From assembly GCA_963816145.1 (NCBI GenBank), contig CAWFJP010000029.1, positions 192,001 through 256,000 of the forward strand: a stretch of 64,000 nt of DNA, given 5' to 3'. Of the stretch, positions 12,882-64,000 are shown one piece after another. The stretch comes from an uncultured delta proteobacterium (GTDB lineage Bacteria; Desulfobacterota; Binatia; UBA9968). The notes below the pieces were generated by a model. It had not been told where the DNA came from, searched no databases, and saw only the letters and a program-made list of their open reading frames with translations. The position numbers were made by a program, and so were the translations under genes. Position 1 is the stretch's first letter; each line of letters begins with the position of its first letter.

Positions 12882-13406
12882 ATGAGTAAAATACAAACCG
12901 TCTTCGGGTCTCTGAGTATATTCGTTATGGGTGTGGCGATTGGAGGCTATGCATTCTCGCAAACGCAGTCCCGATCCCTTTTGTCAATAAACCAATGCCA
13001 GGATTGTTTTAGTCCTAAAGATCTTGCTGGGCTTATTGCTTCTGTTGGTATCAATAAGTTTTCTGGTTTGATACCCGACGTAGTGTTCGAAACCGACAAA
13101 ACGGTCGTTATTAAGAATCCATTCCGAGTTCAGCACGGTGACTTTGCGAAGGGATCGATTGATTACGTCATCTTTCCAAAGAAAGACATTAGGAACATCG
13201 GTGAAATTTCAGTGGCGGATGCTCCGTATATATTCGACGCCATCCTGACGGCACGACACATTATCGAGGAAAACAAGTTAATCAATTATGAGTTGCTTAC
13301 AAACGGGCCGGGGTTTCAGGATGTTAGTTATTTGCATTTTCACTTGCTACTAAGGACGCCCAGGCGGCAGGGAGTGAAACCAAGAAATAGCATGTCGGTA
13401 CCCTAG
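12882..13406 (+). CDS. HIT-family protein with N-terminal signal/TM segment
   Basis: VFETDKTVVI, YVIFPKK and NGPGFQDVSYLHFHLL (HIT motif, first His replaced by Tyr); CQDC motif. Confidence 0.75.
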   Translation: MSKIQTVFGSLSIFVMGVAIGGYAFSQTQSRSLLSINQCQDCFSPKDLAGLIASVGINKFSGLIPDVVFETDKTVVIKNPFRVQHGDFAKGSIDYVIFPKKDIRNIGEISVADAPYIFDAILTARHIIEENKLINYELLTNGPGFQDVSYLHFHLLLRTPRRQGVKPRNSMSVP

Positions 13407-13984
13407 AGTGATTTATCGCCTAGGCGCGTGTAACTTTTCAGTAGTGTCGTTATAGTTTGTTGATCCGTCCATGGATAATAATTTGGCAGCACCTTAAAAA
13501 AGTGATCGCAAAAGTTCTCTTGCTGGCTCATTGTCAAAGCCCACTAGTTTTCGACGGCTCTTCGATTCCCACGCATGTTCGTGGCGATGACATTGAACTG
13601 TATTCTCCATCGGTCAAATCCCGAGAGATTCGCGTTAGGCGCTGGTCAATCCAACCGATATTCTGTGTCAGTCGCAGCTTTCCTCGATGAGCTGGTCCGT
13701 CGGGGAGGAGACTATCAAATCAAGAATTTCTCGTTCAGTTGCGAGACTCCGGGCCGCAGCAACACATTCATTCGATTGCGGTTATTTCCAAGTGACGGCG
13801 TGAAGATTAACCCGTCGCAGATGGCTTGTTCAGCTATTCTGTCGGGATAGTTACCGAGCGCGGGAAAGATTTCTCGCTGCGCTCGAAATGACAGTTGCGG
13901 CGAGAAGCTTGCGAGATCAGAGAGAACTGCCGTGATGCGGATTCGTCGACTCCTATTACTACTACACTGGAATCCTCTGATCGC

Positions 13985-14866
13985 TTAATCCTTCACCATT
14001 TCTACCGCCATAAATTCCCGTTCGATCTTGTTCCAGTCGTCCAGACCGACGACCTTGTCGCGGTCTTTGAACGTTGTCAGAGTGGCGTCGATGGATTCCG
14101 TCGTGCCTTCGCGTTTGAGCGTGCTCAGCGCGGTGCGCATGGCGTGGATGGCGGCACGTTGGGTTTCCGATGGGTAGATGGCGATGCGGTAACCCATTTT
14201 TTCCAAGCGGTTCTTCGGCAGCATCGGCGTTTTGCCGCCTTTAAAGACATTGACCAGCAGCGGAATATTGGGCACACGCCGGGGGATTTCCGCCAGTTCT
14301 TCTTCGGACTGCGGCGCTTCGAGAAAGATGGCGTCGACACCCAACTTGGCGAAGGCGTTGGCGCGTTTGACCGCGTCGTCGAAGCCGTTGACGCCGCGGG
14401 CGTCGGTACGGGCAATGATGCAGAAATCGGGGTCGGTGCGTGCCGCCAGCGCGGCTTTGAGTTTCAATTCCATCTCCGCCTGGGAAATCACTTCCTTGCC
14501 GTCCAAATGGCCGCAGCGTTTGGGCGTGATCTGGTCTTCGATATGGATCGCGGCGACCCCGGCGCGCTCGAACTCGCGTACGCTGCGCACCAAGTTTACA
14601 GCGTTGCCGTAGCCGGTGTCGGCGTCGGCGATGATCGGAATGTTGATCGCCGACACGACTTGGACAGCGCGCTCGATAGATTCCGACATCGTCACTAGGC
14701 CGATGTCGGGAATGCCCATGCTGCGCGCCACCGCGCCGCCGCTCAGGTAAGCGGTCTCGAAACCGGCTTCTTGGACCAGCCGGGCGGACAGACCGTCGAA
14801 GCACCCGGGGGCGACCAGAAGTTGGTTGCGCTTGAGTAGTTGTTTGAGAGTTTGACGTGGGGTCAT
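13985..14866 (-). CDS. prpB: 2-methylisocitrate lyase (ICL/PEP mutase family)
   Basis: IIADADTGYG, HIEDQ, KRCGH, IARTDA; adjacent to prpD and prpC. Confidence 0.85.
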   Translation of the reverse strand: MTPRQTLKQLLKRNQLLVAPGCFDGLSARLVQEAGFETAYLSGGAVARSMGIPDIGLVTMSESIERAVQVVSAINIPIIADADTGYGNAVNLVRSVREFERAGVAAIHIEDQITPKRCGHLDGKEVISQAEMELKLKAALAARTDPDFCIIARTDARGVNGFDDAVKRANAFAKLGVDAIFLEAPQSEEELAEIPRRVPNIPLLVNVFKGGKTPMLPKNRLEKMGYRIAIYPSETQRAAIHAMRTALSTLKREGTTESIDATLTTFKDRDKVVGLDDWNKIEREFMAVEMVKD

Positions 14867-14885
14867 GGGTTATCTCCGTTGATGG

Positions 14886-14955
14886 GCGTCTAACGTCTAG
14901 GCTCTGGCGTCGAGGATTTCCGGACGACGCTAGACCTTAGACGGCAAACTCTAGA
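14886..14955. repeat. Inverted array of 7-mer repeats (CGTCTAG/CTAGACG type)
   Basis: cgtctaa cgtctag gctctgg ... gctagac cttagac ... tctagac in the prpB-prpD spacer. Confidence 0.6.
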
Positions 14956-16389
14956 CTATTTGAGCACAAACATATCGGTAAATTTATCCGCCGGTGTGGA
15001 GTCGAGGCGGTTCCGGTCGTTGCACAAATTCATGATCTCGGCGCACTGCGCGGGGTTGAAGCGAGACGCCAGATTGGCCTCGAACTTCTGCACCAGCAGC
15101 GGCATGCCTTCGGCACGGCGGCGTCGGTGGCCGATGGGATATTCGACGGCGACATTGGCGGTGCTCGTGCCGTCTTTGAAAAATATTTGCACGGCATTGG
15201 CGATGGAGCGCTTGTCGGCGTCCAAATATTCTTGTGTGTAGCGCGGATCTTCGACGCAGGTCATTTTATTGCGTAGAGCGTCAATTCTCGGATCTTTGGC
15301 AACCTTGTCTTCGTAATGATCGGCGGTGAGTTCGCCGAAGATCAGGCCGATGGCGGTCATGTACTGAATGCAATGATCGCGGTCGGCGGGGTTGTGCAGC
15401 GGGCCGAACTTGTCGATGATGCGGATCGCCGATTCCTGGGTGGTAATGACGACCTTGTCGATTTCATTCAAGCGATTTTTGACCTGCTCGTGCAGCTGCA
15501 CCGCGCACTCGACGGCGGTCTGGGCGTGGAACTCCGCCGGGAATGAGATCTTGAACAGCACGTTCTCCATTACATACGAGCCGAGCCGCCGGCCCATGGT
15601 GAACGGCTTGCCCTTGAACAGGACATCGTAGTAGCCCCAGGTCTTGGCCGAGAGCACCGACGGGTAACCCATCTCGCCTTGCAGCGCCATCAGAGCCAAA
15701 CGCACGCCTCGGCTGGTGGCATCGCCGGCAGCCCAGGATTTTCGTGGTCCGGTGTTGGGCGCGTGGCGGTAGACTCGCAACGCACCGCCGTCCGTCCAGG
15801 CGTTCGATAGCGCGCTGATGATTTGCGCGCCCGTGCCGCCGAGCATTGCGGTCGCTACCGCAGTAGTGGCGACACGAACGAGCAGGACATGATCGAGACC
15901 GACGCGGTTGTAGCTGTTTTCAAGCGCCAGAATGCCTTGGATCTCGTGCGCCTTGATCATTGCCTGCAAAACATCGCCGACGGTGAATGATTTCTGCTTG
16001 GTGCGCGTGAGATAGTCGGCGAGCGCGAGGATGCCGCCCAAATTATCCGATGGATGGCCCCACTCGGCAGCAAGCCAGGTATCGTTGTAGTCGAGCCAGC
16101 GGATCATTGTGCCGATGTTGAAGGCCGCCTGCACCGGCTCCAATTGCCAATCGGTGCCCGGCACGCGAGATCCGCTGATCAAGATCGCGCCGGGCACGAC
16201 CGGACCCAAGAGCTTGGTGCATTCGGGAAAGCGCAGAGCCAACAGGCCGCAGCCCAGGGTGTCGATCAGGTTGTAGCGTGCGGTGTCGATGGCCTCACGG
16301 CTAGCGCAGACGTAGCTCGCGGCATAGTCGGCCAATTCTACTAAAAGTTTATCCGGCTCTGGGCGGATGTTGGATACAGTGGTGCTCAT
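14956..16389 (-). CDS. prpD: 2-methylcitrate dehydratase
   Basis: [61 protein letters not shown]. Confidence 0.97.
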
Positions 16390-53225: not shown

Positions 53226-54257
53226 CTAAAAGAGTCTCCGTGCCCGATCGATTAACAGCCAACAGATCATTGCCATCACAGCCGATGCGGGGATGGTGAG
53301 GATCCAGGCCCAGACGATTCGGCCGGCGACGTTCCAGCGCACGGAGCGGAGCCGGCGCAGGGAGCCGACGCCAACGATGGCGCCGGTGATTGTATGAGTG
53401 GTCGATACAGGAATGCCGAAATGGGCTGCACCAAAAAGCGTAAATGCACCGGCGGCTTCGGCGGCAAATCCACCCATAGGTTGAAGTTTGGTGATGCGCG
53501 AACCCATGGTGTGGACGATGCGCCAGCCGCCGGAGAGGGTGCCTAAGCCGATGGCAGCGTGGGCCATTAAGACGATCCAAAATGGGATGGCCATCTTGCC
53601 CGCAGCGTCGCTGACGTAGCCGCGATATTCGGGCACAATAAACAATGCGCCGGCGATGATGCCCATGGTTTTTTGCGCGTCGTTGGTGCCGTGACCGAGA
53701 CTGTACGCGGCCGCCGATATGAGCTGGCCCCGTCTGAATATATGGTCGACGTTTGCGGGAATCGATCGTTTAAAAATGTTTAAGATCGCCACCAAATTTA
53801 TCATGCCGAGCGCCATGCCGAGGAGCGGCGCAATGATGATAAAAGTTAGTGTGCTGATCCAACCTCCTGGTATGATGATCCCTAGGCCGGCCTTGGCGAT
53901 GCCGGCGCCGGCGAGGCCGCCGATCAGGGCATGGGAGGAGCTGGTCGGCAGACCGACGTACCAGGTGATCAAGTCCCATGCAATCGCGCCGATCAGTGCC
54001 GCGAGAATGACATAAGAGTCGACCTGGTTGACGTCGAGCAGGCCGCTGCCGATGGTCTTTGCGACCGCGGTGCCGAAGGTAAAGGCGGCGACGAAATTCC
54101 AAAACGCCGCCCACACCACGCCTTGCATGGGTGTCAAGACCCGGGTCGACACCACCGTGGCGATGGAATTGGCGGCGTCGTGAAAACCGTTGACGTAGTC
54201 GAAGGCGAGGGCTACGGCGATAATGAAGATCGTCAGAAGCAGAACCGGATCAGCCAT
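53226..54257 (-). CDS. pit: Inorganic phosphate transporter, PiT family
   Basis: NGFHDAANSIAT, GLPTSSSHAL, HGTNDAQKTMG, GIPVSTTH. Confidence 0.96.
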   Translation of the reverse strand: MADPVLLLTIFIIAVALAFDYVNGFHDAANSIATVVSTRVLTPMQGVVWAAFWNFVAAFTFGTAVAKTIGSGLLDVNQVDSYVILAALIGAIAWDLITWYVGLPTSSSHALIGGLAGAGIAKAGLGIIIPGGWISTLTFIIIAPLLGMALGMINLVAILNIFKRSIPANVDHIFRRGQLISAAAYSLGHGTNDAQKTMGIIAGALFIVPEYRGYVSDAAGKMAIPFWIVLMAHAAIGLGTLSGGWRIVHTMGSRITKLQPMGGFAAEAAGAFTLFGAAHFGIPVSTTHTITGAIVGVGSLRRLRSVRWNVAGRIVWAWILTIPASAVMAMICWLLIDRARRLF

Positions 54258-54879
54258 TTTTGATAACCACGCGCTGCAGTACGTCGGCGATGTCTTCCAT
54301 CCGGTCGGTGGCTTCTTCGAGCATTTCGTAGATCTCTTTCCAGCGAATCAGATTGAACAGATCTTCCTTGTGATTGACGATGTCGACCAGCGCTTCGCGT
54401 AGCATTCGGTCGCCATTATTCTCGATGGTGTTTATCTCCTTGATATGCTCGGTGACCAGGCGAAAGTTTTTTTTCTCGCGCAGGTTGGGCATCGCCTCGT
54501 GCAGTTCGGCGGCGCCGCTGCGGATCAACTGCGCAAGCTGGCGCGCCCGCTCGGTGGGCGTTTCGATTTGGAATATGACCATGCGCACGGCGGTCGCCTC
54601 GATCCCGTCTATGGCGTCGTCGAGGGCAGAGATCAGCCGCTCGATATCTTCGCTGTCGAGCGGGATGATCAGCGTGTGCATCAACAGGTGCATGACCTCA
54701 TGGACGATAAAGTCGCCGCGATGCTCCAATTCGGTGATATGGGCGACCTTGGCTTCGACATTTTCATAGTGATCGAACATGTCCTGCAACGCGGTTGCGG
54801 CGTCCAATAGGTTGCCGGTAGCTTTCTCAAACCACTCATAGAATTTGGTCTCCGCCGGCAGAAACTGAAATTTCGCCAT
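54250..54879 (-). CDS. DUF47 phosphate transport regulator (Pit accessory, PhoU-like)
   Basis: LEHRGD, PLDSEDI..L...LDD, ENNGD, WKEIYE.LE.ATD; ATG 54879 with GGAG RBS; overlaps pit start. Confidence 0.92.
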   Translation of the reverse strand: MAKFQFLPAETKFYEWFEKATGNLLDAATALQDMFDHYENVEAKVAHITELEHRGDFIVHEVMHLLMHTLIIPLDSEDIERLISALDDAIDGIEATAVRMVIFQIETPTERARQLAQLIRSGAAELHEAMPNLREKKNFRLVTEHIKEINTIENNGDRMLREALVDIVNHKEDLFNLIRWKEIYEMLEEATDRMEDIADVLQRVVIKNG

Positions 54880-54920
54880 TATTTCTCCACAATATACGTC
54901 AAACGTTAGATTAAGGGACC

Positions 54921-54959
54921 CGAAAAAACGAAACGCGTGATACGTATCACGCGTTTCGT
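54921..54959 (-). terminator. Perfect 32-bp palindrome plus U-tract (intrinsic terminator-like)
   Basis: acgaaacgcgtgatac|gtatcacgcgtttcgt (54928-54959), followed on the minus strand by TTTTT. Confidence 0.7.
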
Positions 54960-55138
54960 AGTCCTTCAACTAAAGCGGCAAGATTTGGCGGGAAATGCCG
55001 ATGTCGGATTCTTGGATGAATCGAATCGCCAACGGATATACGGCTCTCGGCTGGGTGGCGACGCAAAGGTCGCGCGCGCAATGGAAAACTTGTGGCTGTG
55101 ATTCCGTCTTCTATTTGGCTGCGCCAAGAATCACTGCT

Positions 55139-56968
55139 TCACATTAACAGTATCCCTTCGTTAGCCGTTGCGTCCGCCACCATTGGCAAATGGACGCTAA
55201 TGGTCGTGCCCTTGTTCAACTCGCTGGAGATTTTGAGTTCGCCGCGATGGGCCTGGACGATGTGCTTGACGATTGCTAGGCCGAGGCCGGTGCCGCCAAG
55301 ATCGCGCGACCTTGCCTTGTCCACACGGTAAAAGCGTTCAGTCAGTCGAGGTAGATCTTTTTCGGGGATTCCCACGCCGCTGTCTGCGACGGCGATCTCG
55401 ATTTGCCTCACGCCGCTGTCGTCCGTTTCGCATTCGGCCGCGCTCAGCGTCACTTTGCCGCCCGGCGGCGTATATTTGACGGCGTTGTCGACAAGGTTGA
55501 TGAGAAGCTGCTGCAAGCGATCCGGGTCGCCGCTGATCTTACCGCATGGTGTGCCAATCTTCTGGGTGAGTTTGATATCTTTCTTGGCCGCCCGGTCCCA
55601 GAAAACTTCGAGGGTTTGCTGCACTAGTCTTGCCGTATCCACCGGCTTTGGCGTGATCTGAATCTTGCCTGACTCGAGATCGGATAACGTCAATAGGTCT
55701 TCGGTCAACCGGCCGAGCCTTTCGGCATGGCGCTCGATAATTTCGAGAAACTGCTGCCGGTCTTCGGCCTTACCCGGGGGGGAATGGATCAGTGTTTCCA
55801 CGTAACCTTGGATGGCCGTCAATGGGGTGCGCAATTCATGCGAGACGTTGGCGACAAAGTCGGAGCGGATGGTCTCGAGCTGTTTAATTTTCGTGACATC
55901 GTGAAAGACGAGGATGGAGCCCAAGGTCATGCGTTGGGGATTGCGCAGTGGCGCGGCGTTGACGCTGAACCAATAGCCATCCTCCAATTCGATCTCTCGG
56001 CTGAAGGTCTGACTGGTAAAATCAAATCTCAAAACTTCCTCGAGAATCGCATGAATTTCCGGATGGCGAGAAAGTTCTAAAATCGACACCCCAAAAACCT
56101 CGCGTCCCGGAGGCACATGAAACATTCCTCTGGCTTGGTCGTTGACGACGAGCACGTTGCCCTTGGGGTCAAGCACTAGGACTCCCTCTATCATGCACCG
56201 TAATATCGAATCGGCCTTCTCTTTTTCGCTGATGATATCGGTGAGGTTGTCGCGAATCCGCTGGCACATGTCGTTGAGATGCTGCTCCAAGAGGCCGAAT
56301 TCGTCTTGATTGTAGCTCGGAAAAAAATCTTGCGGAAAGCTTCCTTGGGCGATCTTGCCTGAAAACTGCACCAACCGTTGGACACGCCGGCTAAGATAGC
56401 TGGAAAACCACCAAGCGAGCATCAGACTGGCCAGAGACGCGACCAGCAAGCCGGCGAATAAGGAGCGGCGCATATTACGGTTCACATCGTCGAACTCTTT
56501 CAAAGGGATCGAAATGCGGACAATACGTTGCTGCTTCTCGCCGCGCTGATAAAAGGCCCGGTACAGCATGTCGAAACCAACGGTGGTGCTGTAGCGCTGC
56601 GAGCTGGCGGTGGTCGATTTTAGCGCATCGATGATCTCGGGGCGGCGCCCATGATTCTCCATTTTTTCCGAAGACTCGGCAGAATCGCCCAACACTTTGC
56701 CATCAATGGCGATGACGGTGATGCGCACGCCCAGTTCGCCGGCGAGTTGGCGGCAGATCTCGTCGAGGTCGGCGCCTTCTACGCCGAAGGGCAACACTCG
56801 GCTGAGCAAGTGGGCCTCCTGCTCCATTCGATTGCCGAGGGTTGCGATGTGAAAATCGCGAATTAGGCTGTTGGAAGAAACGTAAAATCCCAGAACAAGC
56901 AGCAGTGCGACCGCCAAGTAGGAGAAGAAAACTTTGTTGACGAGACTAAGATTCCAGAGCCTTTTCAT
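55139..56968 (-). CDS. phoR: Phosphate regulon sensor histidine kinase
   Basis: TM-HAMP-PAS; FVANVSHELRTPLT, NLVDNAVKY, ERFYRVDKARSR..GGTGLGLAIVKH. Confidence 0.93.
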   Translation of the reverse strand: MKRLWNLSLVNKVFFSYLAVALLLVLGFYVSSNSLIRDFHIATLGNRMEQEAHLLSRVLPFGVEGADLDEICRQLAGELGVRITVIAIDGKVLGDSAESSEKMENHGRRPEIIDALKSTTASSQRYSTTVGFDMLYRAFYQRGEKQQRIVRISIPLKEFDDVNRNMRRSLFAGLLVASLASLMLAWWFSSYLSRRVQRLVQFSGKIAQGSFPQDFFPSYNQDEFGLLEQHLNDMCQRIRDNLTDIISEKEKADSILRCMIEGVLVLDPKGNVLVVNDQARGMFHVPPGREVFGVSILELSRHPEIHAILEEVLRFDFTSQTFSREIELEDGYWFSVNAAPLRNPQRMTLGSILVFHDVTKIKQLETIRSDFVANVSHELRTPLTAIQGYVETLIHSPPGKAEDRQQFLEIIERHAERLGRLTEDLLTLSDLESGKIQITPKPVDTARLVQQTLEVFWDRAAKKDIKLTQKIGTPCGKISGDPDRLQQLLINLVDNAVKYTPPGGKVTLSAAECETDDSGVRQIEIAVADSGVGIPEKDLPRLTERFYRVDKARSRDLGGTGLGLAIVKHIVQAHRGELKISSELNKGTTISVHLPMVADATANEGILLM

Positions 56969-57665
56969 CGAACTTGTAGCCGACTCCGCGCAGCGTCAGT
57001 ATCCATTGCGGATTACTATCGTCTTTTTCAATCGCTTTGCGCAAGCGGCGAATATGCACATCGACGGTGCGCGGGGTGACGAAGGTGTCCCCGCCCCAGA
57101 CGCGATCGAGAAGTTGATCGCGGTTGAGTACCCGGTTGGGGTTCTGCACGAGAAATTTCAACAGCTCGAACTCCTTAAGGGTTAACTTGATTGGTTTGCT
57201 CTGCACTGAAACTTCGTAGGTGGCAAAATCGATCTTTAGCCCGCCTTTTTGATAGGCCGGCAGAGTCTCAGTCTGGCCGGTGCCGTTAGTCCGGCGCAAG
57301 ATAGCCCGCACCCGGGCGACCAACTCACGCGGGCTGAAAGGTTTGGCCAAATAGTCGTCCGCGCCAAGTTCCAGACCCAGGACGCGGTCCGCTTCGCCGG
57401 ACTTGGCGGTCAACATGAGGATCGGCAGTTTTGCGGTATCATCTTGGCCACGAAGCGTTCGACAAAGCTCCAAACCTGACATTCCCGGCATCATCAGATC
57501 GAGGATGACCAGGCTCGGTTTGTCGCGGTGAATCAGTTTAAGCGCTTGGTCGCCGTTTTCAGCTTCGATAACTTTGTAGTGGTCTTGAGTGAGGTTGTAA
57601 TGCACCAGTTTGCGAATATCGGGCTCGTCCTCAACGACGAGGATCTTGTATGCGGCGTTACCCAT
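56946..57665 (-). CDS. phoB: Phosphate regulon response regulator (OmpR family)
   Basis: LDLMMPG, GADDYLAKPFS, RTVDVHIRRLR; lies between phoU and phoR. Confidence 0.92.
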   Translation of the reverse strand: MGNAAYKILVVEDEPDIRKLVHYNLTQDHYKVIEAENGDQALKLIHRDKPSLVILDLMMPGMSGLELCRTLRGQDDTAKLPILMLTAKSGEADRVLGLELGADDYLAKPFSPRELVARVRAILRRTNGTGQTETLPAYQKGGLKIDFATYEVSVQSKPIKLTLKEFELLKFLVQNPNRVLNRDQLLDRVWGGDTFVTPRTVDVHIRRLRKAIEKDDSNPQWILTLRGVGYKFDEKALES

Positions 57666-57671
57666 AATTTG

Positions 57672-58370
57672 CTAAACCGACGGCGGCACTTCCTTCATGT
57701 GGCGAATGCTTTTCCCTTTGACCATGAAGATCACCATTTCGGCGATGTTGGTCGCGTGATCGGCGATGCGCTCGAGATACTTCGAGATCGAACTGATTTT
57801 GGTCGCGCGGCTGATGGTTTGGGCGTTTTCAAGCATGAACGTTAGGGTCTCGCGGAAGATTTGCGCGTTCAGGTCATCGACATCGGCATCGTCCTTACAC
57901 ACCTTGAGCGCGAGATCGGTGTCTTCTCGGACGAAGGCGTCGAGGCTTTCGTGAATCATCCGCTGGGAAATGCGCGCCATGCGCGGAATGTCGATATAGG
58001 GTTTGAGCTGCGGCTCCTGGTTCAGTTCAAGAGCGCGCTCGCAGATATTCACCGCCATGTCGCCAATCCGCTCGAGATCGGTGGTGATCTTAAGTCCGGT
58101 CGTAATCAGGCGCAGATCGATGCCGGCGGGCTGGTGCAGGGCGAGCAGCTTGATGCACAATTCGTCGATTTCCACATCCAACCGGTTTACTTCATGGTCG
58201 CGTTCGATGATGATGTTGGCGAGATCGGAATCCCGGTCGACCAAAGCTTTGATCGATTTCTGAATTTGATCTTCGACCAGTCCGCCCATGTAAAGAATTT
58301 CTTCACGTAGTTTGGATAGCTCTTCTTCGTATTTCTTGTCTGTATGTTGTGTCGTCATCCCTTCCTCCAA
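57672..58370 (-). CDS. phoU: Phosphate signalling protein PhoU
   Basis: QPAGIDLR, DLERIGD, LERIADHATNIAE. Confidence 0.96.
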   Translation of the reverse strand: MEEGMTTQHTDKKYEEELSKLREEILYMGGLVEDQIQKSIKALVDRDSDLANIIIERDHEVNRLDVEIDELCIKLLALHQPAGIDLRLITTGLKITTDLERIGDMAVNICERALELNQEPQLKPYIDIPRMARISQRMIHESLDAFVREDTDLALKVCKDDADVDDLNAQIFRETLTFMLENAQTISRATKISSISKYLERIADHATNIAEMVIFMVKGKSIRHMKEVPPSV

Positions 58371-58372
58371 GA

Positions 58373-59236
58373 TTAACCGAAACGGCCGGTAATGTAATCT
58401 TCAGTTTGGCGCTTTTCCGGAGCAGTAAACAGTTTTTGGGTCTCGCCAAATTCGACCAACTCACCGACATAGAAAAACGCGGTATAATCCGATGACCGGG
58501 CCGCTTGTTGCATATTGTGCGTGACGATCACGATTGTAACTTTTTCTTTTAATTCGTGGATGAGCTCCTCGATTTTGGCCGTTGCGATCGGATCGAGGGC
58601 CGAGCAGGGTTCGTCCATCAACAGCACTTCGGGATCCACTGCCAATGCGCGCGCTATGCAAAGTCTTTGTTGTTGCCCGCCGGACAAGCTGGTCCCCGGC
58701 TTTTGAAGATTATCCTTCACTTCATCCCAAATCGCCGCGTTCTTGAGACTGCGTTCGACTTTTTCCGCGATCAATTTTCGATCGCGGATCCCATTCAATC
58801 GATATCCGGAGGCAACATTGTCGTAGATCGACATGCTGGGAAAAACATTCGGCTTCTGGAAGACCATTCCAACCCGGCGACGCACGTCGACCGGATCGAC
58901 ACCGGGGCCATAGAGGTCTTGGCCGTCGAGCAGCACTTTGCCTTGGACGCGCCCGCCCGGGGTGACTTCGTGCATGCGGTTGAGGCAGCGAATGAACGTC
59001 GATTTGCCGCAACCGGACGGGCCGATAATCGATGTAACCTGATTGGTTCTGACCGACATATTGACGTTTTTGACTGCCCGGACATCGCCATAAAAGATAC
59101 TTAAATCTTCGACCTTGAGCCGGATATCTTCTGCTGGAACCGACGCCTTGTTCTCCGAGCCATGAAGGTCGCTGCGGCTGATCAGCTCTTTCGGCGCATG
59201 GGCCTCATCGCTCATGTGAACTCCCCCATTATTCAT
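58373..59236 (-). CDS. pstB: Phosphate ABC transporter ATPase
   Basis: [39 protein letters not shown]. Confidence 0.97.
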
Positions 59237-60098
59237 GTGACTTCCCCCTCAGAAATGTACGCGTCAAGACGCTGGTAAACAATACCACCGCCATCAATAC
59301 GAACGATGCAGCCCAGGCCTTTTGATGCCAATCGTCATAGGGTCCAGTCGCGTAGGTGTAAATGAGCATGGGCACCGTGGCGATTGGCTTGCTTAGATTC
59401 AAATTCCAAAAGGGATTGCCGAAGGCGGTGAACAACATCGGCGCCGCTTCGCCAAGAGCTCTTGAGACCGCGAGGATCGCGCCAGTCAACAATGCTGTCT
59501 TCGAGACCGGCAAAACTACCCAGAGTATTGTGCGCCATTTCGGCACGCCCAATGCCAATGACGCTTCCCGCAGCGAGGTTGGAACTAGTCGAAACGCCTC
59601 GTGGGAGGTGATAACCAAGATCGGCACCATGATAAAAGCGTAGGCAACCGAGCCGGAAAATCCCGAGAATGCACCGAAGGGTTGAACCACCATGTCGTAG
59701 GCGAACAGGCCGACGACGATGGACGGCACCCCGGTCAACACCTCCGCCATGAATCGCACCGTACGGCCGAGCCGGGCGCTGGGAAACTCATTGATAAAGA
59801 TGGCAGCGCCCAAGCCGATCGGTAACGCCATCAGCGTTGCGACGATGACCACGAGTATGCTACCGACCAGCGCGTTAGCGATACCGCCGCCGGACTCGCC
59901 AGGGGGCAACGGCAGCTCGGTCAGAAATGACCAGTCAATAGCGGTTGCACCGTTATAGACGACGTAGCCTAAAATCATAAAAAGTAGCGATACCGTAACG
60001 CTCGTGCAAAGCACCATGCCGATCCAGGCAAATCGTTGGACGATTTTGCGAAACGGGTAATTACTCGGCGTTGCTGCGAGATTCATTGCGCTCATCAT
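59229..60098 (-). CDS. pstA: Phosphate ABC transporter permease PstA
   Basis: [33 protein letters not shown]. Confidence 0.96.
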
Positions 60099-60104
60099 CT
60101 TACC

Positions 60105-61103
60105 TCATTCAAAAACCGCGACCTTGCCTTTGGAAAGCTTCCAGATCATCCACTGGGCGCATAGGCTGATGACGATCGTGATGCCAAACAAAACAAGTCC
60201 AACATAGATAAGCGAGGACACATACAAGCTGTAAGTTGCCTCGGTGAATTCGCTGGCAATTTGACTCGCCATGCTGTGCACGGGGTCGAATAAAGAGTGA
60301 ATCATATCGAAAGAATTTCCCCCGACCATCGTGACCGCCATGGTTTCGCCGATGGCCCGGCCCAAACCAAGAATCACGGCGCCAAATAGGCCGACGCGTG
60401 AGTAGGGCAGCGCCACTTTCCATATCGCTTCCCATTTGGTCGCGCCCAACGCTAACATGCCTTCAATTTGCGGGCGCGGCACGGTCAAAAGGATGTCGCG
60501 GGAAATCGCCGTGACGATTGGCAGGATCATGATCGCGAGAATGACGCTGCCGGATAGCACGCCGACGCCGTAGACAGCCGGACCATCGAAAAGGAAAAAC
60601 CAGCCGAAGTTGGCCTTGAGCCAAATTTGCAGCGCGCGAATGATCGGAACCATGACGAACAGACCCCACAATCCAAAGACTATGCTTGGAATCCCCGCTA
60701 ACAATTCAATCGGGTAGGAAATAAACGGCCGCAGCCACTTCGGTATGTAAAAGGTAATGAAGACGGCGGAACCGATACTAATCGGCACCGCGAGCATTAG
60801 ACCGAGAGAGGCTTTTACCAGTGTGCCGATGATCGTGGGCAGCGTGCTGAATTCGCGAGTGACCGGATCCCACTTGGTGCCTACGAGAAATCCTAAACCA
60901 AATTTTTGGATGGCCTCCCAGGCGCCGTGAACAAGGTTTATCACCAACGCAATCCCGAGCACGATCACCGTGACTGCGAAAGCTCGGGTGACAATGTAAA
61001 ATAGCCGGTCACCAGCATTGGTCACAATCACATCATGATGTACCGCGGGCGCGGAAATTCCAGTCGGGAATGTTCTATCGATCGCTTGGGATGGCTCGCT
61101 CAT
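60105..61103 (-). CDS. pstC: Phosphate ABC transporter permease PstC
   Basis: ELLAGIPSIVFGLWG, LALGATKWE, GRAIGETMAV. Confidence 0.96.
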   Translation of the reverse strand: MSEPSQAIDRTFPTGISAPAVHHDVIVTNAGDRLFYIVTRAFAVTVIVLGIALVINLVHGAWEAIQKFGLGFLVGTKWDPVTREFSTLPTIIGTLVKASLGLMLAVPISIGSAVFITFYIPKWLRPFISYPIELLAGIPSIVFGLWGLFVMVPIIRALQIWLKANFGWFFLFDGPAVYGVGVLSGSVILAIMILPIVTAISRDILLTVPRPQIEGMLALGATKWEAIWKVALPYSRVGLFGAVILGLGRAIGETMAVTMVGGNSFDMIHSLFDPVHSMASQIASEFTEATYSLYVSSLIYVGLVLFGITIVISLCAQWMIWKLSKGKVAVFE

Positions 61104-61126
61104 TGAGTATCTCCGGGCTGATAAGA

Positions 61127-61162
61127 AAGGCGCAGCCGCTACTCACGCACCGGCTGCGCCTT
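61127..61162 (-). terminator. Stem-loop between pstS and pstC (partial terminator or mRNA stabiliser)
   Basis: 12-bp stem aaggcgcagccg / cggctgcgcctt. Confidence 0.7.
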
Positions 61163-61181
61163 GCATAAAAAATAGCGCTGA

Positions 61182-62243
61182 TTACTTTAACACTAACCGG
61201 TTGTTGAGCTTGATTTTCTTGACTAGGGCCTCAGCTTTTTTTACGGCGACGCCTTTCAGCGGGGCATAGTCCAAGGGCGTCGCGTATTTTTGGCCGTCCG
61301 TAACCATCCACATCGCGAGATTTGCCACCGCGTCGGCCTTAGCTTCGTTGGTCTGGTTCTCGTAAACCAGCAGCCAGGTGAAACCGCTGATTGAATAGGC
61401 GGCGGGATTGGCGCTGTCGGTTATGACGACTTCCATATTGTCCGGCAGATCTTTTTGATCCGCTGCAGCGGCCGCGCCCTCGAGGCTTGGATCGAGAAAT
61501 TTACCGGATTTATTGCTCAGTTGCGCCCACGTGAGTTTGGTCTGTTTAGCGTAGGCAAGCTCGACGTAGCCGATCGCGCCAGGGATCTGCTTTACCGAAT
61601 TGGCAACGCCTTCATTGCCTTTACCGCCGACATCGCCAGGCCAGTTCACCGAAGTGGCCGAGCCAACCTTCTCTTTCCACTCTGAGCTGACTTTAGAAAG
61701 ATAGTTGGTAAATATAAAGGTGGTTCCCGAGCCGTCCGAGCGATGCACCACCGCAATGGTCAGGTCAGGCAGGTTCATTCCGGGATTGATCGCTTTGATC
61801 TTGGCATCGTTCCATTTGTTGATCTTTTTCAAGTAAATGTCGGCGAGCACTTCGGGGGTGAGCTTGAGCTTGCTTGTTGGAATACCGGGGAGATTAAAGA
61901 TGACCGCTTCAGCTCCGGCCACAGTCGGGATGTGAAGCACCGCGCCACCCTTGGCTTCGGCTTTCTGCTTGTCGTCCATGACGCCATCCGATGCCCCGAA
62001 GTCTACCGTCTGTTCCTTGAGTTGTTGGATGCCGCCGCCCGAGCCGATGGATTGATAGTTCACCTTCACCCCGCAAATCTTGTCGTATTCGGCGAACATC
62101 TTGGAGTAGAGGGGATAAGGGAACGTTGCGCCCGCACCGGTCAGCTCTTTAACCCCTTTTGTTGGACAGCCCGCCACGGCGGCGGCGTTGGTGAAAAGCA
62201 ACGCACTTACGGCAACTAAACCTGCAAAACTTTTAGATTTCAT
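61182..62243 (-). CDS. pstS: Phosphate ABC transporter substrate-binding protein
   Basis: GAGATFPYP, NYQSIGSGGG, DFGASD, HRSDGSGTT, GKGNEGV. Confidence 0.97.
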   Translation of the reverse strand: MKSKSFAGLVAVSALLFTNAAAVAGCPTKGVKELTGAGATFPYPLYSKMFAEYDKICGVKVNYQSIGSGGGIQQLKEQTVDFGASDGVMDDKQKAEAKGGAVLHIPTVAGAEAVIFNLPGIPTSKLKLTPEVLADIYLKKINKWNDAKIKAINPGMNLPDLTIAVVHRSDGSGTTFIFTNYLSKVSSEWKEKVGSATSVNWPGDVGGKGNEGVANSVKQIPGAIGYVELAYAKQTKLTWAQLSNKSGKFLDPSLEGAAAAADQKDLPDNMEVVITDSANPAAYSISGFTWLLVYENQTNEAKADAVANLAMWMVTDGQKYATPLDYAPLKGVAVKKAEALVKKIKLNNRLVLK

Positions 62244-62283: not shown

Positions 62284-62311
62284 TGTTAACGACGCGTTAC
62301 GGCATTGTTAA
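62284..62311 (-). promoter_or_regulatory. Pho box, proximal to pstS
   Basis: Minus-strand hexamers TTAACA, GTAACG, TTAACA at exact 11-bp period (62306, 62295, 62284). Confidence 0.7.
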
Positions 62312-62453: not shown

Positions 62454-62689
62454 ATTGGTTTACGGATGGCGCTGATATCGGATTATCTTAACCGGCGGTT
62501 AACAGTGCCTAGTACATTTCAATCCGGATTGAGCTCACGATTTCACTAGCACGCATGTGAAAAGGGGCGTTGCCTGAGCGCTCTACAATAAGCTGATTTG
62601 GATTGATCTGCTGCCCATGGATTTCAGTTTGGCTATGAAATGCGATGGTGGTCTTGAAGAGGGAGAGCTGGGTTACAATCTCTTGCGGC

Positions 62690-62706
62690 TTAACAAGAAC
62701 TTAACA
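62690..62706 (+). promoter_or_regulatory. Pho box oriented towards the TMK-like genes
   Basis: TTAACA-agaac-TTAACA direct repeat, 11-bp period, about 90 nt upstream of 62798. Confidence 0.65.
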
Positions 62707-62797
62707 TTCAAAACCGGCCTTTTTCTGGAATCTCTGAAGGAGGCTTTGATAGGCTCGCTGGGATACTGTCGGATAGGCAAGCAACACATTTAAAGTT

Positions 62798-63532
62798 ATG
62801 GCTATTGGTATGAAAATGTACGGTAAACACCGCTTTCCTGGGCGGTTGTTTATCGTCGAAGGTATCGATGGCTCGGGCAAGAGCACGCAGCTATCCTTGC
62901 TCAAGAAATGGCTGGAGTCCGAAGGCTATGTGGTTTACTTCAGCGAATGGAATTCTTCCCCGCTGGTTGCCGACGTCACCAAGCGGGGCAAGAAGAAAAA
63001 GATGTTGACGCCGATGACTTTTAGCCTGATCCATGCGACCGATTTTGCCGATCGCACTGAGCATCACATCATCCCGCCGTTGAAAGCCGGCGCGGTGGTC
63101 CTTGCCGACCGTTATGTTTACACGGCGTTTGCTCGCGACGTCGTGCGCGGCGTCAGCCCGAAGTGGGTGCGCGAACTTTACGCCTTTGCGGTCAAGCCGA
63201 CCGTAGCCTTTTATTTTCGGACGCCTTTGGAAGTATCGATGAAGCGAATCTTGGGCGGCCGGGACGCGATCAAGTATTACGAAGCGGGCATGGATCTCGG
63301 TTTAAGCGACGATCTCGAACAGAGCTTCCGGCTGTTCCAAGGGCAGATTATCGATGAGTACGAAAAGATGGTCGACGAATTCGGACTTGTGGCTATCGAT
63401 GCCACGCGGTCCATCGAGGAGCAGCAGGCCGAAGTGCGCCGCCTCGTTACCGCAGCATTGGAAGGAACCAAGAAAGCCCAGGTGAGACGATGGCTCGATT
63501 TAGCTTCTTTGGCGAAGGACTCCCGGAAATAG
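62798..63532 (+). CDS. Thymidylate-kinase-like P-loop protein A (candidate polyphosphate kinase subunit)
   Basis: IVEGIDGSGKST, HATDFADR, LADRY, YEAGMD. Confidence 0.88.
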   Translation: MAIGMKMYGKHRFPGRLFIVEGIDGSGKSTQLSLLKKWLESEGYVVYFSEWNSSPLVADVTKRGKKKKMLTPMTFSLIHATDFADRTEHHIIPPLKAGAVVLADRYVYTAFARDVVRGVSPKWVRELYAFAVKPTVAFYFRTPLEVSMKRILGGRDAIKYYEAGMDLGLSDDLEQSFRLFQGQIIDEYEKMVDEFGLVAIDATRSIEEQQAEVRRLVTAALEGTKKAQVRRWLDLASLAKDSRK

Positions 63533-64000
63533 ATCTGGCGGAATTGAAAGGCAAGCTGATCGTTCTGGAGGGGACGGACGGTGTCGGCCGCTCGACCCAT
63601 ATCGGCTTGTTGAAGCAGTGGCTGGAAAATCATGGCCATGCGGTGCTAGACACCGGCATGACCCGTTCGGCACTGGCCGGAAAGCGGCTAAAGCAAGCCA
63701 AAGAGGGCAACACCCTTGGCGGCATCACCCTGAGCTTGTTTTATGCCACTGACTTTGCCGATCGTCTGGAAAATGAAATTATCCCAGCGCTGCGCGCCGG
63801 CTTCGTTGTGCTGACCGACCGCTACATCTATTCTCTTATGGCAAGGGCGATCGTCCGCGGCATGGATTCTGAGTGGTTGCGCGAGGTCTACGGCTTTGCC
63901 TTGAAGCCCGACGCGATTTTCTATCTACGCGTCAACATCGACGACTTGGTGACGCGCGTCTTGCAGAGCGGTGGTTTCGATTATTGGGAGTCGGGCATGG
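63490..64000 (+). CDS. Thymidylate-kinase-like P-loop protein B (partial; candidate polyphosphate kinase subunit)
   Basis: Manual translation MARFSFFGEGLP...IVLEGTDGVGRST...YATDFADR...LTDRY...WESGM; overlaps gene A by 43 nt; runs off the window. Confidence 0.88.
   Translation, partial: MARFSFFGEGLPEIDLAELKGKLIVLEGTDGVGRSTHIGLLKQWLENHGHAVLDTGMTRSALAGKRLKQAKEGNTLGGITLSLFYATDFADRLENEIIPALRAGFVVLTDRYIYSLMARAIVRGMDSEWLREVYGFALKPDAIFYLRVNIDDLVTRVLQSGGFDYWESGM

Follow-up and report, generated by a model that had tools for sequence, protein, structure and literature searches.

Two overlapping genes, A and B, at the downstream end of a 64,000-nt stretch of contig CAWFJP010000029.1 (assembly GCA_963816145.1), from an uncultured bacterium of the Binatia, probably encode a bacterial family-3 polyphosphate kinase (PPK3), a heteromer of two proteins with the thymidylate kinase fold. 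A would be the catalytic subunit (cPPK3) and B its partner (rPPK3), and we put the probability of this reading at about 0.8. The whole stretch is referred to here as the window; it corresponds to C29:192001-256000 in contig coordinates, and window positions start at 1. At the level of sequence, the orthology to archaeal PPK3 subunits, the A-then-B pairing, the neighbourhood of polyphosphate (polyP) genes and the loss of a motif for binding thymidine monophosphate (dTMP) are established. From that orthology and gene context we infer phosphotransfer between polyP and ADP/ATP by A, aided by B.

The system used for comparison was SaPPK3 from Sulfolobus acidocaldarius, a heteromer of Saci_2019 (cPPK3) and Saci_2020 (rPPK3) (Hofmann et al., J Biol Chem 2026, PMC12995831; preprint 10.1101/2024.08.28.610084; cited below as Hofmann et al., 2026). 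SaPPK3 is an alpha2beta2 enzyme that acts reversibly and favors making ATP out of ADP and polyP. Neither Saci_2019 nor Saci_2020 has dTMP kinase activity, and rPPK3 is inactive alone. The PPK3 clade is described as mostly composed of bacterial dTMP kinase paralogues, and every predicted operon contains both subunits (Hofmann et al., 2026).

Sequence features of the gene pair

The two genes overlap by 43 nt, and their products agree at 90 of 224 aligned positions (40% identity). Thymidylate_kin was the sole Pfam match for either protein, with 74.5 bits for A and 75.8 bits for B. A preliminary description, made from the sequence of this DNA, had proposed two overlapping paralogous genes of this fold, divergent from pstSCAB-phoU-phoBR-DUF47-pit, with the P-loops GSGKST (A) and GVGRST (B, Lys to Arg) and with common ATDFADR and E[AS]GM motifs. 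The open reading frames (ORFs) and the Pfam matches agreed with this arrangement, and all of the motifs were present in the translations, the last one as E[AS]GMD in both proteins. A also displayed a basic patch consisting of R63, K65-K68, R155, K159 and R178.

A and B have the fold, the P-loop, the DRX motif and the lid in common with canonical thymidylate kinase (Tmk). They differ from it by a 5-residue insertion in the lid, by their lower Pfam scores (75 versus 161 bits), by their separate clade and by the absence of the dTMP-binding motif TREPGGT. The position of this motif is occupied by SEWNSSP in A and by TGMTRSA in B, while the canonical motif is kept in the tmk genes of this genome and of its relatives. 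With the NCBIfam dTMP kinase equivalog (TIGR00041, cut-off 83.25 bits), A scored 87.5 bits and thus passed, which explains the 'dTMP kinase' labels in databases; the in-window part of B scored 76 bits, under the cut-off. The mislabelling that the preliminary description had expected from automated annotation was encountered in database names. PPK2 enzymes (PF03976) are likewise P-loop kinases acting on polyP and nucleotides, but neither A nor B matched this family at E values up to 0.01 or 0.001. The enzyme of Ruegeria pomeroyi formerly labelled 'PPK3' is a PPK2-family protein and belongs to a different family.

Orthology to archaeal PPK3 and phylogeny

When A was compared with all PDB sequences, the top match was STK_15430 from Sulfurisphaera tokodaii (2plr/5h70; 209 bits, E 5e-61, 206 residues), and B matched 2plr with 144 bits. 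True dTMP kinases reached only about 52 bits with A and about 46 bits with B. STK_15430 is named as the homologue of the cPPK3 Saci_2019 (Hofmann et al., 2026), and both of its PDB entries are titled 'probable thymidylate kinase'. This archaeal, thermophilic protein is the closest solved relative of A and of B and was solved without an r partner; no structure of a c-r heteromer turned up in the PDB sequence searches with A and B.

A tree of 74 rows (34 c, 32 r and eight canonical Tmk) was calculated from the window and 33 of 160 loci, hand-picked for diversity; IQ-TREE was run in quick mode, and branches were assessed by SH-aLRT alone. The canonical Tmk were set apart with a support of 100, and the c and r branches received 81 and 77, respectively. 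A branched among the c rows and B among the r rows, and the topologies of the two branches mirrored one another, which fits a single old duplication as proposed by Hofmann et al. (2026). The c and r rows of the Sulfolobaceae-type metagenome contig L090 were placed inside the c and r branches, on long branches. A comparison with Tmk and the PPK3 subunits had been suggested in the preliminary description; it located A and B beside the Sulfolobaceae-type c and r proteins and away from the canonical dTMP kinases.

L090 was used for comparison with the archaeal operon. Its gene order, sixA-ppx-c-r-CHAD, matched that described for saci_2017 to saci_2021 (Hofmann et al., 2026), its c protein scored 338 bits to STK_15430, and its r protein carried GSGRSS and ADGY. 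The Walker-A Arg of B was thus also seen in a Sulfolobaceae-type r subunit, for which L090 stood in for Saci_2020. This contig came from the second metagenome scan, for which alignment A1 was used and which yielded loci L090-L169; a scan with the Sulfolobaceae-like representative P0245 alone found no relative. Another protein considered as Sulfolobaceae representative, P0181, was dropped since it scored just 168 bits to 2plr.

Conservation of pairing and motifs

For the motif counts below, ORFs were classed as c or r by their best BLAST match to A or B, counting only matches of at least 150 aligned residues. A B-type ORF directly followed the A-type ORF in 78 of 80 genome loci, with L046 and L050 stopping at A, and in 76 of 80 metagenome loci. 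Among the latter, L092 and L102 end near A, no B-type ORF was found in L110, and the second ORF of L129 was nearer to A. The overlap or abutment of the two genes was conserved across loci.

All 161 c-type sequences displayed the Walker-A Lys and the DRX Arg. The Walker-A position was Arg in 145 of the 147 r-type sequences, the exceptions being one truncation and one misaligned row, and DR was retained in 146 of 147, with L090 as the sole sequence carrying DG. Judging from Saci_2020 and STK_15420, Hofmann et al. (2026) ascribed the inactivity of rPPK3 to a lost DRX arginine. The same loss was expected of B as an r subunit and was not found, B having DRY. Since DR is so widely retained among r-type sequences, loss of the DRX arginine is not general, and the hallmark that they share is the Walker-A Lys-to-Arg exchange; we read the DRX loss as a trait of the Sulfolobaceae and not of the family. 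At the positions of six residues of A (R63, K66, K67, R155, K159 and R178), 85% or more of the 39 c rows examined had a basic residue, compared with 41% or less of 39 r rows. These c-conserved positions fit the polyP cleft of Hofmann et al. (2026), onto which they were putatively mapped.

Several proteins contained c and r in this order within a single polypeptide, namely P0002 (427 aa), P0121 (460 aa) and P0129, P0138 and P0139 (650-696 aa). Either genuine fusion or a frameshift in the gene call may account for them. P0002 carried GSGKST followed by GVGRST, while the second P-loop of P0121 was degenerate. A single internal c-type PPK3-like domain, 43-46% identical to A, was also observed in some very long proteins: P0162 (2575 aa) and P0193 (1610 aa), and likewise P0212, P0198, P0201, P0195 and P0176 (1030-1276 aa).

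Model of the A-B complex

A and B, each given as a 39-row alignment, were modelled as a 1:1 complex. The model scored 0.68 compared with 0.00 for the best control; 116 of 157 solved complexes attained this mark, as did two of 215 mismatched pairs. Contact agreement between the runs was at least 84% and partner pLDDT at least 80. The modelled interface lies on core helices, involving residues 71-89 and 117-130 of A and residues 76-95 and 124-136 of B. The model may point to binding of A to B. Independent hints of such an interaction come from the natural c-r single polypeptides and from the fact that the genes regularly overlap or abut.

Gene neighbourhood

The positions of the pair, of the neighbouring phosphate genes and of the repeats between them are listed in Table 1. 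The divergent pst/phoBR layout was kept at the loci of Binatia-like relatives. Directly 3' of B, in convergent orientation, we identified genes encoding a CHAD protein (122.5 bits), a SixA-like protein (His_Phos_1, 56.8 bits), a low-molecular-weight (LMW)-phosphatase/ArsC-like protein, a Ppx/GppA protein (185 bits) and PsiE; a universal stress protein gene comes next. The preliminary description had advised looking downstream for ppx, CHAD or sixA, and all three were located there.

Table 1. Features of the pst-A-B region, in window positions unless marked C29
Feature	Position	Strand	Remarks
DUF47 + PHO4/Pit	53226-54969	-	Pfam; after phoR
pstS-pstC-pstA-pstB-phoU-phoB-phoR	55139-62243	-	Pfam-confirmed; divergent from A-B; phoB at 56946-57665
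Three hexamers TTAACA, GTAACG, TTAACA, 11-nt period	62284-62311	-	41 nt before pstS start; candidate pstS Pho box
TTAACC-N5-TTAACA, one mismatch	62488-62504	+	Middle of the pstS-A intergenic region
Perfect TTAACA-N5-TTAACA, TTAACAAGAACTTAACA	62690-62706	+	Candidate PhoB site, 108 to 92 nt before A start
Conserved island CTTTGATAGGCT	62744-62755	+	TTTG[ACT]TA in the alignment of relatives' upstream regions
Gene A	62798-63532	+	244 aa; cPPK3-type catalytic subunit; Walker-A GSGKST, DRY
Gene B	63490-64000 (window end); full end C29:256185	+	231 aa; rPPK3-type; GVGRST, DRY

The LMW-phosphatase/ArsC-like gene (C29:257656-258096, minus strand, equal to L001:3656-4096) sits between the sixA-like gene and ppx. 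It was kept in most Binatia-like loci and lies outside the Sulfolobus operon as described by Hofmann et al. (2026). A different linkage of PPK3 to phosphate uptake was displayed by the metagenome loci L100, L103, L132, L144 and L150, where c-r is immediately preceded by pstB-phoU in the same orientation.

The locus resembles that of SaPPK3 in having adjacent paralogues of the thymidylate kinase fold, c followed by r, with ppx, sixA and CHAD near and the canonical tmk elsewhere, and A possesses the Walker-A Lys, the DRX Arg and the basic cleft of the catalytic subunit. However, B retains the DRX arginine, which is missing from Saci_2020 and STK_15420. Here ppx, sixA and CHAD are encoded on the other strand, run convergently to the pair and do not form one operon with it, and the LMW-phosphatase-like gene and the divergent pst-phoU-phoBR genes with a Pho-box-like site are additional. 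The genome also contains two PPK1 and two PPK2 loci, and the host is a mesophilic organism of soil or wetland.

Pho-box-like repeats

The preliminary description had noted a perfect TTAACA-N5-TTAACA repeat facing the pair, with the hexamer and the period seen in front of pstS. Both were found as described (Table 1). The repeats may resemble the TTAACA-type boxes of PhoP in Bacillus. The triplet before pstS consists of two overlapping matches with two mismatches and overlaps a promoter-like site. Six repeats with up to two mismatches were counted in the window, compared with a mean of 1.30 in shuffled sequences (one of 100 shuffles reached six), and five of the six fall within the pstS-A intergenic region.

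In the whole genome (7.82 Mb) we found one perfect repeat, the one before A, and seven sites with one mismatch; two of these eight sites are in the pstS-A intergenic region. A hand estimate from base composition gave about 0.3 perfect and about 12 one-mismatch repeats. The counts being near this rough expectation, a genome-wide excess was rejected as evidence of a regulon, and the argument for a Pho site is based on where the repeats lie and on their conservation in relatives. A one-mismatch repeat (TTAACA-N5-TTTACA) was also observed at C31:12791-12807, 281 nt before a PPK1 gene (ORF 13088-15004), which may share the control of A-B.

Among 34 Binatia-like loci, 14 had a site with at most one mismatch at -91 to -119 relative to the start of A, whereas none of 42 more distant loci did. 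With up to two mismatches and a range of -160 to -60, sites were present in 19 of 35 close relatives, which are kin and not independent. In the rest of the same loci, 35 sites were found in 762,096 nt, or 0.005 per 117 nt. In the sites of the relatives the hexamers were constant and the spacer letters variable. The conserved island between the repeat and A may represent the extended -10 element (TG-n-TAGGCT) of an A-B promoter; a sigma-70 scan listed no plus-strand promoter before A. The conserved candidate PhoB site suggests Pho control of A-B.

Other polyP genes and distribution of the pair

A canonical tmk was identified at C4:206712-207296 (161 Pfam bits, TREPGGT present), and the genome carries two PPK1 and two PPK2 loci, the PPK2 genes lying away from A-B. 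The preliminary description had called for a check of the genome for a separate tmk and for ppk1 and ppk2; the separate tmk bore out its reading, while the genome proved not to be short of other polyP kinases. A weak fourth match to Thymidylate_kin (39.6 bits) is located at C1:210326-210844 on the minus strand, with similar weak single copies in most relatives; its product is probably another P-loop kinase. One of the PPK1 genes (C29:286261-288351) lies about 30 kb downstream of the pair. A few kb past it we observed an ORF of 365 aa (C29:290932-292029), the N-terminus of which looked Ppx/GppA-like by eye, and a one-mismatch TTAACA repeat at C29:292465-292481.

The closest relatives of A and B were in records labelled Candidatus Binatia or 'Deltaproteobacteria' metagenome-assembled genomes, and the more distant ones belonged to Acidobacteriota, Ktedonobacteria and other Chloroflexota, with a few records from Verrucomicrobiota. 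In the protein library, 392 clusters (50% identity) matched A at E values up to 1e-30. The predicted bacterial operons in Data S1 of Hofmann et al. (2026) represent c+r pairs of the same clade as A-B, and relatives of A likewise occur in Acidobacteriota and Ktedonobacteria; the numbers given there for PPK1, PPK2 and PPK3 are 0, 0 and 1 in Chloracidobacterium and 1, 1 and 1 in Ktedonobacteria. No 'Binat' entry was found in the portion of the supplement text that was covered.

In the genus of the window, the pair was present in seven of 12 other genomes, with two pairs in the unpublished genome G005. It was not found in G002, G004, G007, G008 and G010 (completeness 84, 92, 98, 99 and 60%, respectively), nor in any of eight genomes from two other families of the order. 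Of 301 genomes drawn evenly from the phylum, 10 (among them G000, the genome of the window) carried the pair, in every case with the two matches side by side. The eight genomes of the genus with the pair (G005 included) encoded PPK1 in four and PPK2 in all eight cases. Complementarity of PPK1 and PPK3 within the genus was considered and rejected, as PPK1 in 4/8 genomes with and 4/5 without the pair are too few and too closely related. In G007, PPK1, PPK2 and the PPK3 pair were all not found by the three family searches.

Two loci in records labelled Candidatus Udaeobacter and Verrucomicrobiia, L039 and L044, encoded A and B proteins 83-86% and 78-84% identical to ours and had the Binatia-like downstream layout. 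They could be recent transfers or mis-binned contigs. DNA holding the locus was detected in soil, wetland and sediment metagenomes. The metatranscriptome X20 yielded two 151-nt contigs over 63291-63569, at the A/B junction, which we did not take as evidence of transcription because contigs of RNA libraries do not show it. From two further RNA libraries only short, dissimilar pieces or none at all were obtained, and the uncovered parts carry no meaning.

Alternative explanations

The preliminary description had concluded that A and B are a candidate polyP kinase with a catalytic and a regulatory subunit, and the STK_15430 scores, the tree, the polyP neighbours and the A-B model uphold this as a predicted activity. 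A and B might instead be extra nucleoside monophosphate kinases, for dTMP or another substrate, used in salvage under phosphate stress. The Thymidylate_kin matches of both, the pass of A with NCBIfam and its intact ATP-binding motifs would suit such a role, yet we regard it as very improbable, given the separate canonical tmk with its 161 bits, the lack of TREPGGT in A and B, the branch with a support of 100 between them and canonical Tmk, the polyP genes next to them and the absence of dTMP kinase activity in vitro in the archaeal orthologues (Hofmann et al., 2026). A rather unlikely variant accepts the pair as PPK3 and lets B bind nucleotide or the polyP end, as an energy-charge sensor or a slow second site, with a regulation unlike that in Sulfolobus. 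The near-universal DR of r-type sequences, replaced by DG only in the Sulfolobaceae-type L090, favors this variant, as do R34, R111, R119, R123 and R156 of B, which are invariant or nearly so. In P-loop NTPases a Walker-A Lys-to-Arg exchange usually spares binding and impairs transfer, which also counts for it. On the other hand, the cleft residues of the c-type are not conserved in the r-type, Saci_2020 alone is inactive (Hofmann et al., 2026), and the degenerate second P-loop of P0121 indicates that at least one lineage can do without nucleotide binding by r.

It is also conceivable, although we doubt it, that the pair is a PPK3 but the repeat before A is not its regulator, serving pstS alone or having arisen by chance, so that A-B would be constitutive or otherwise controlled. 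The intergenic region is shared, with the repeat at a distance of 447 nt from pstS, the genome-wide counts do not exceed the rough expectation, 15 of 34 close relatives and 42 of 42 distant loci have no good site, and the sigma-70 scan found no promoter on the plus strand. However, a separate set of boxes precedes the pstS start by 41 nt, the distance of the sites to the A start is stable (-91 to -119) while the spacer letters change, the enrichment is large (19/35 loci versus 0.005 per 117 nt elsewhere) and the divergent pst/phoBR arrangement is conserved.

Several observations weigh against the assignment of A-B as a Pho-controlled PPK3. Most PPK3 genomes have neither PPK1 nor PPK2 (Hofmann et al., 2026), and with two of each here, it is not evident why a third kinase would be needed. 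In the quick tree search the c and r branches were only moderately supported (81 and 77), and the L090 rows are long-branched. B, with its DRX arginine, might not be inert. Thymidylate kinases are described as homodimers (Hofmann et al., 2026), and with an interface on core helices the pass of the A-B model may echo solved homodimers. As to the control of the pair, the TTAACA repeats are not above expectation genome-wide, the repeat precedes the putative -10 element by about 44 nt and is not at a -35 position, a good site is missing in 15 of 34 close relatives, and the sites of the relatives are not mutually independent evidence.

Proposed function and significance

On the PPK3 reading, the following mechanism may be proposed. 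When phosphate is scarce, phosphorylated PhoB would bind the TTAACA repeats and turn on both A-B and the divergent pst operon. The 43-nt overlap would couple the translation of the two genes and lead to matched amounts of their products. A would be the catalyst, owing to its intact Walker-A Lys, the DRX Arg and the conserved basic cleft. B, with the Walker-A Lys-to-Arg exchange and without the basic cleft, would be non-catalytic and would bind A and raise its activity, as Saci_2020 does with Saci_2019. PPK3 would then turn stored polyP into ATP, the direction preferred by SaPPK3, alongside the adjacent Ppx, CHAD and SixA. An inactive domain that assists an active one is known from two-domain PPK2 (Hofmann et al., 2026). 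A more general proposal is that the second subunit of most PPK3, B included, is a nucleotide-binding pseudokinase, marked by the Walker-A Lys-to-Arg exchange and a retained DRX arginine, that tunes catalysis to ATP/ADP instead of being a dead scaffold, and that in soil Binatia the enzyme forms a starvation-specific route from polyP to ATP within the Pho regulon, beside PPK1 and PPK2; this we offer as speculation that could easily fail.

The enzyme family is already published, and since bacterial PPK3 operons are predicted in Data S1 of Hofmann et al. (2026), the idea of PPK3 in bacteria is not new. The bacterial enzymes are predicted only, no enzyme assay of one being reported in the sections of that article that were covered. 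Our literature search returned nothing on Pho control of PPK3 or on PPK3 in Binatia. The present analysis goes slightly beyond the published account in a genome that combines the PPK3 pair with two PPK1 and two PPK2 loci. It also does so, slightly, in the r hallmark of a Walker-A Lys-to-Arg exchange with DRX retained, and in the conserved position of a Pho-box-like site beside pst-phoBR in Binatia.

The locus thus offers a mesophilic candidate with a clear regulatory hypothesis and with r motifs unlike those of the Sulfolobus model. The PPK3 family is patchy yet spread over many soil lineages, and as its members bear 'dTMP kinase' labels, the polyP capacity of soil bacteria is under-counted.

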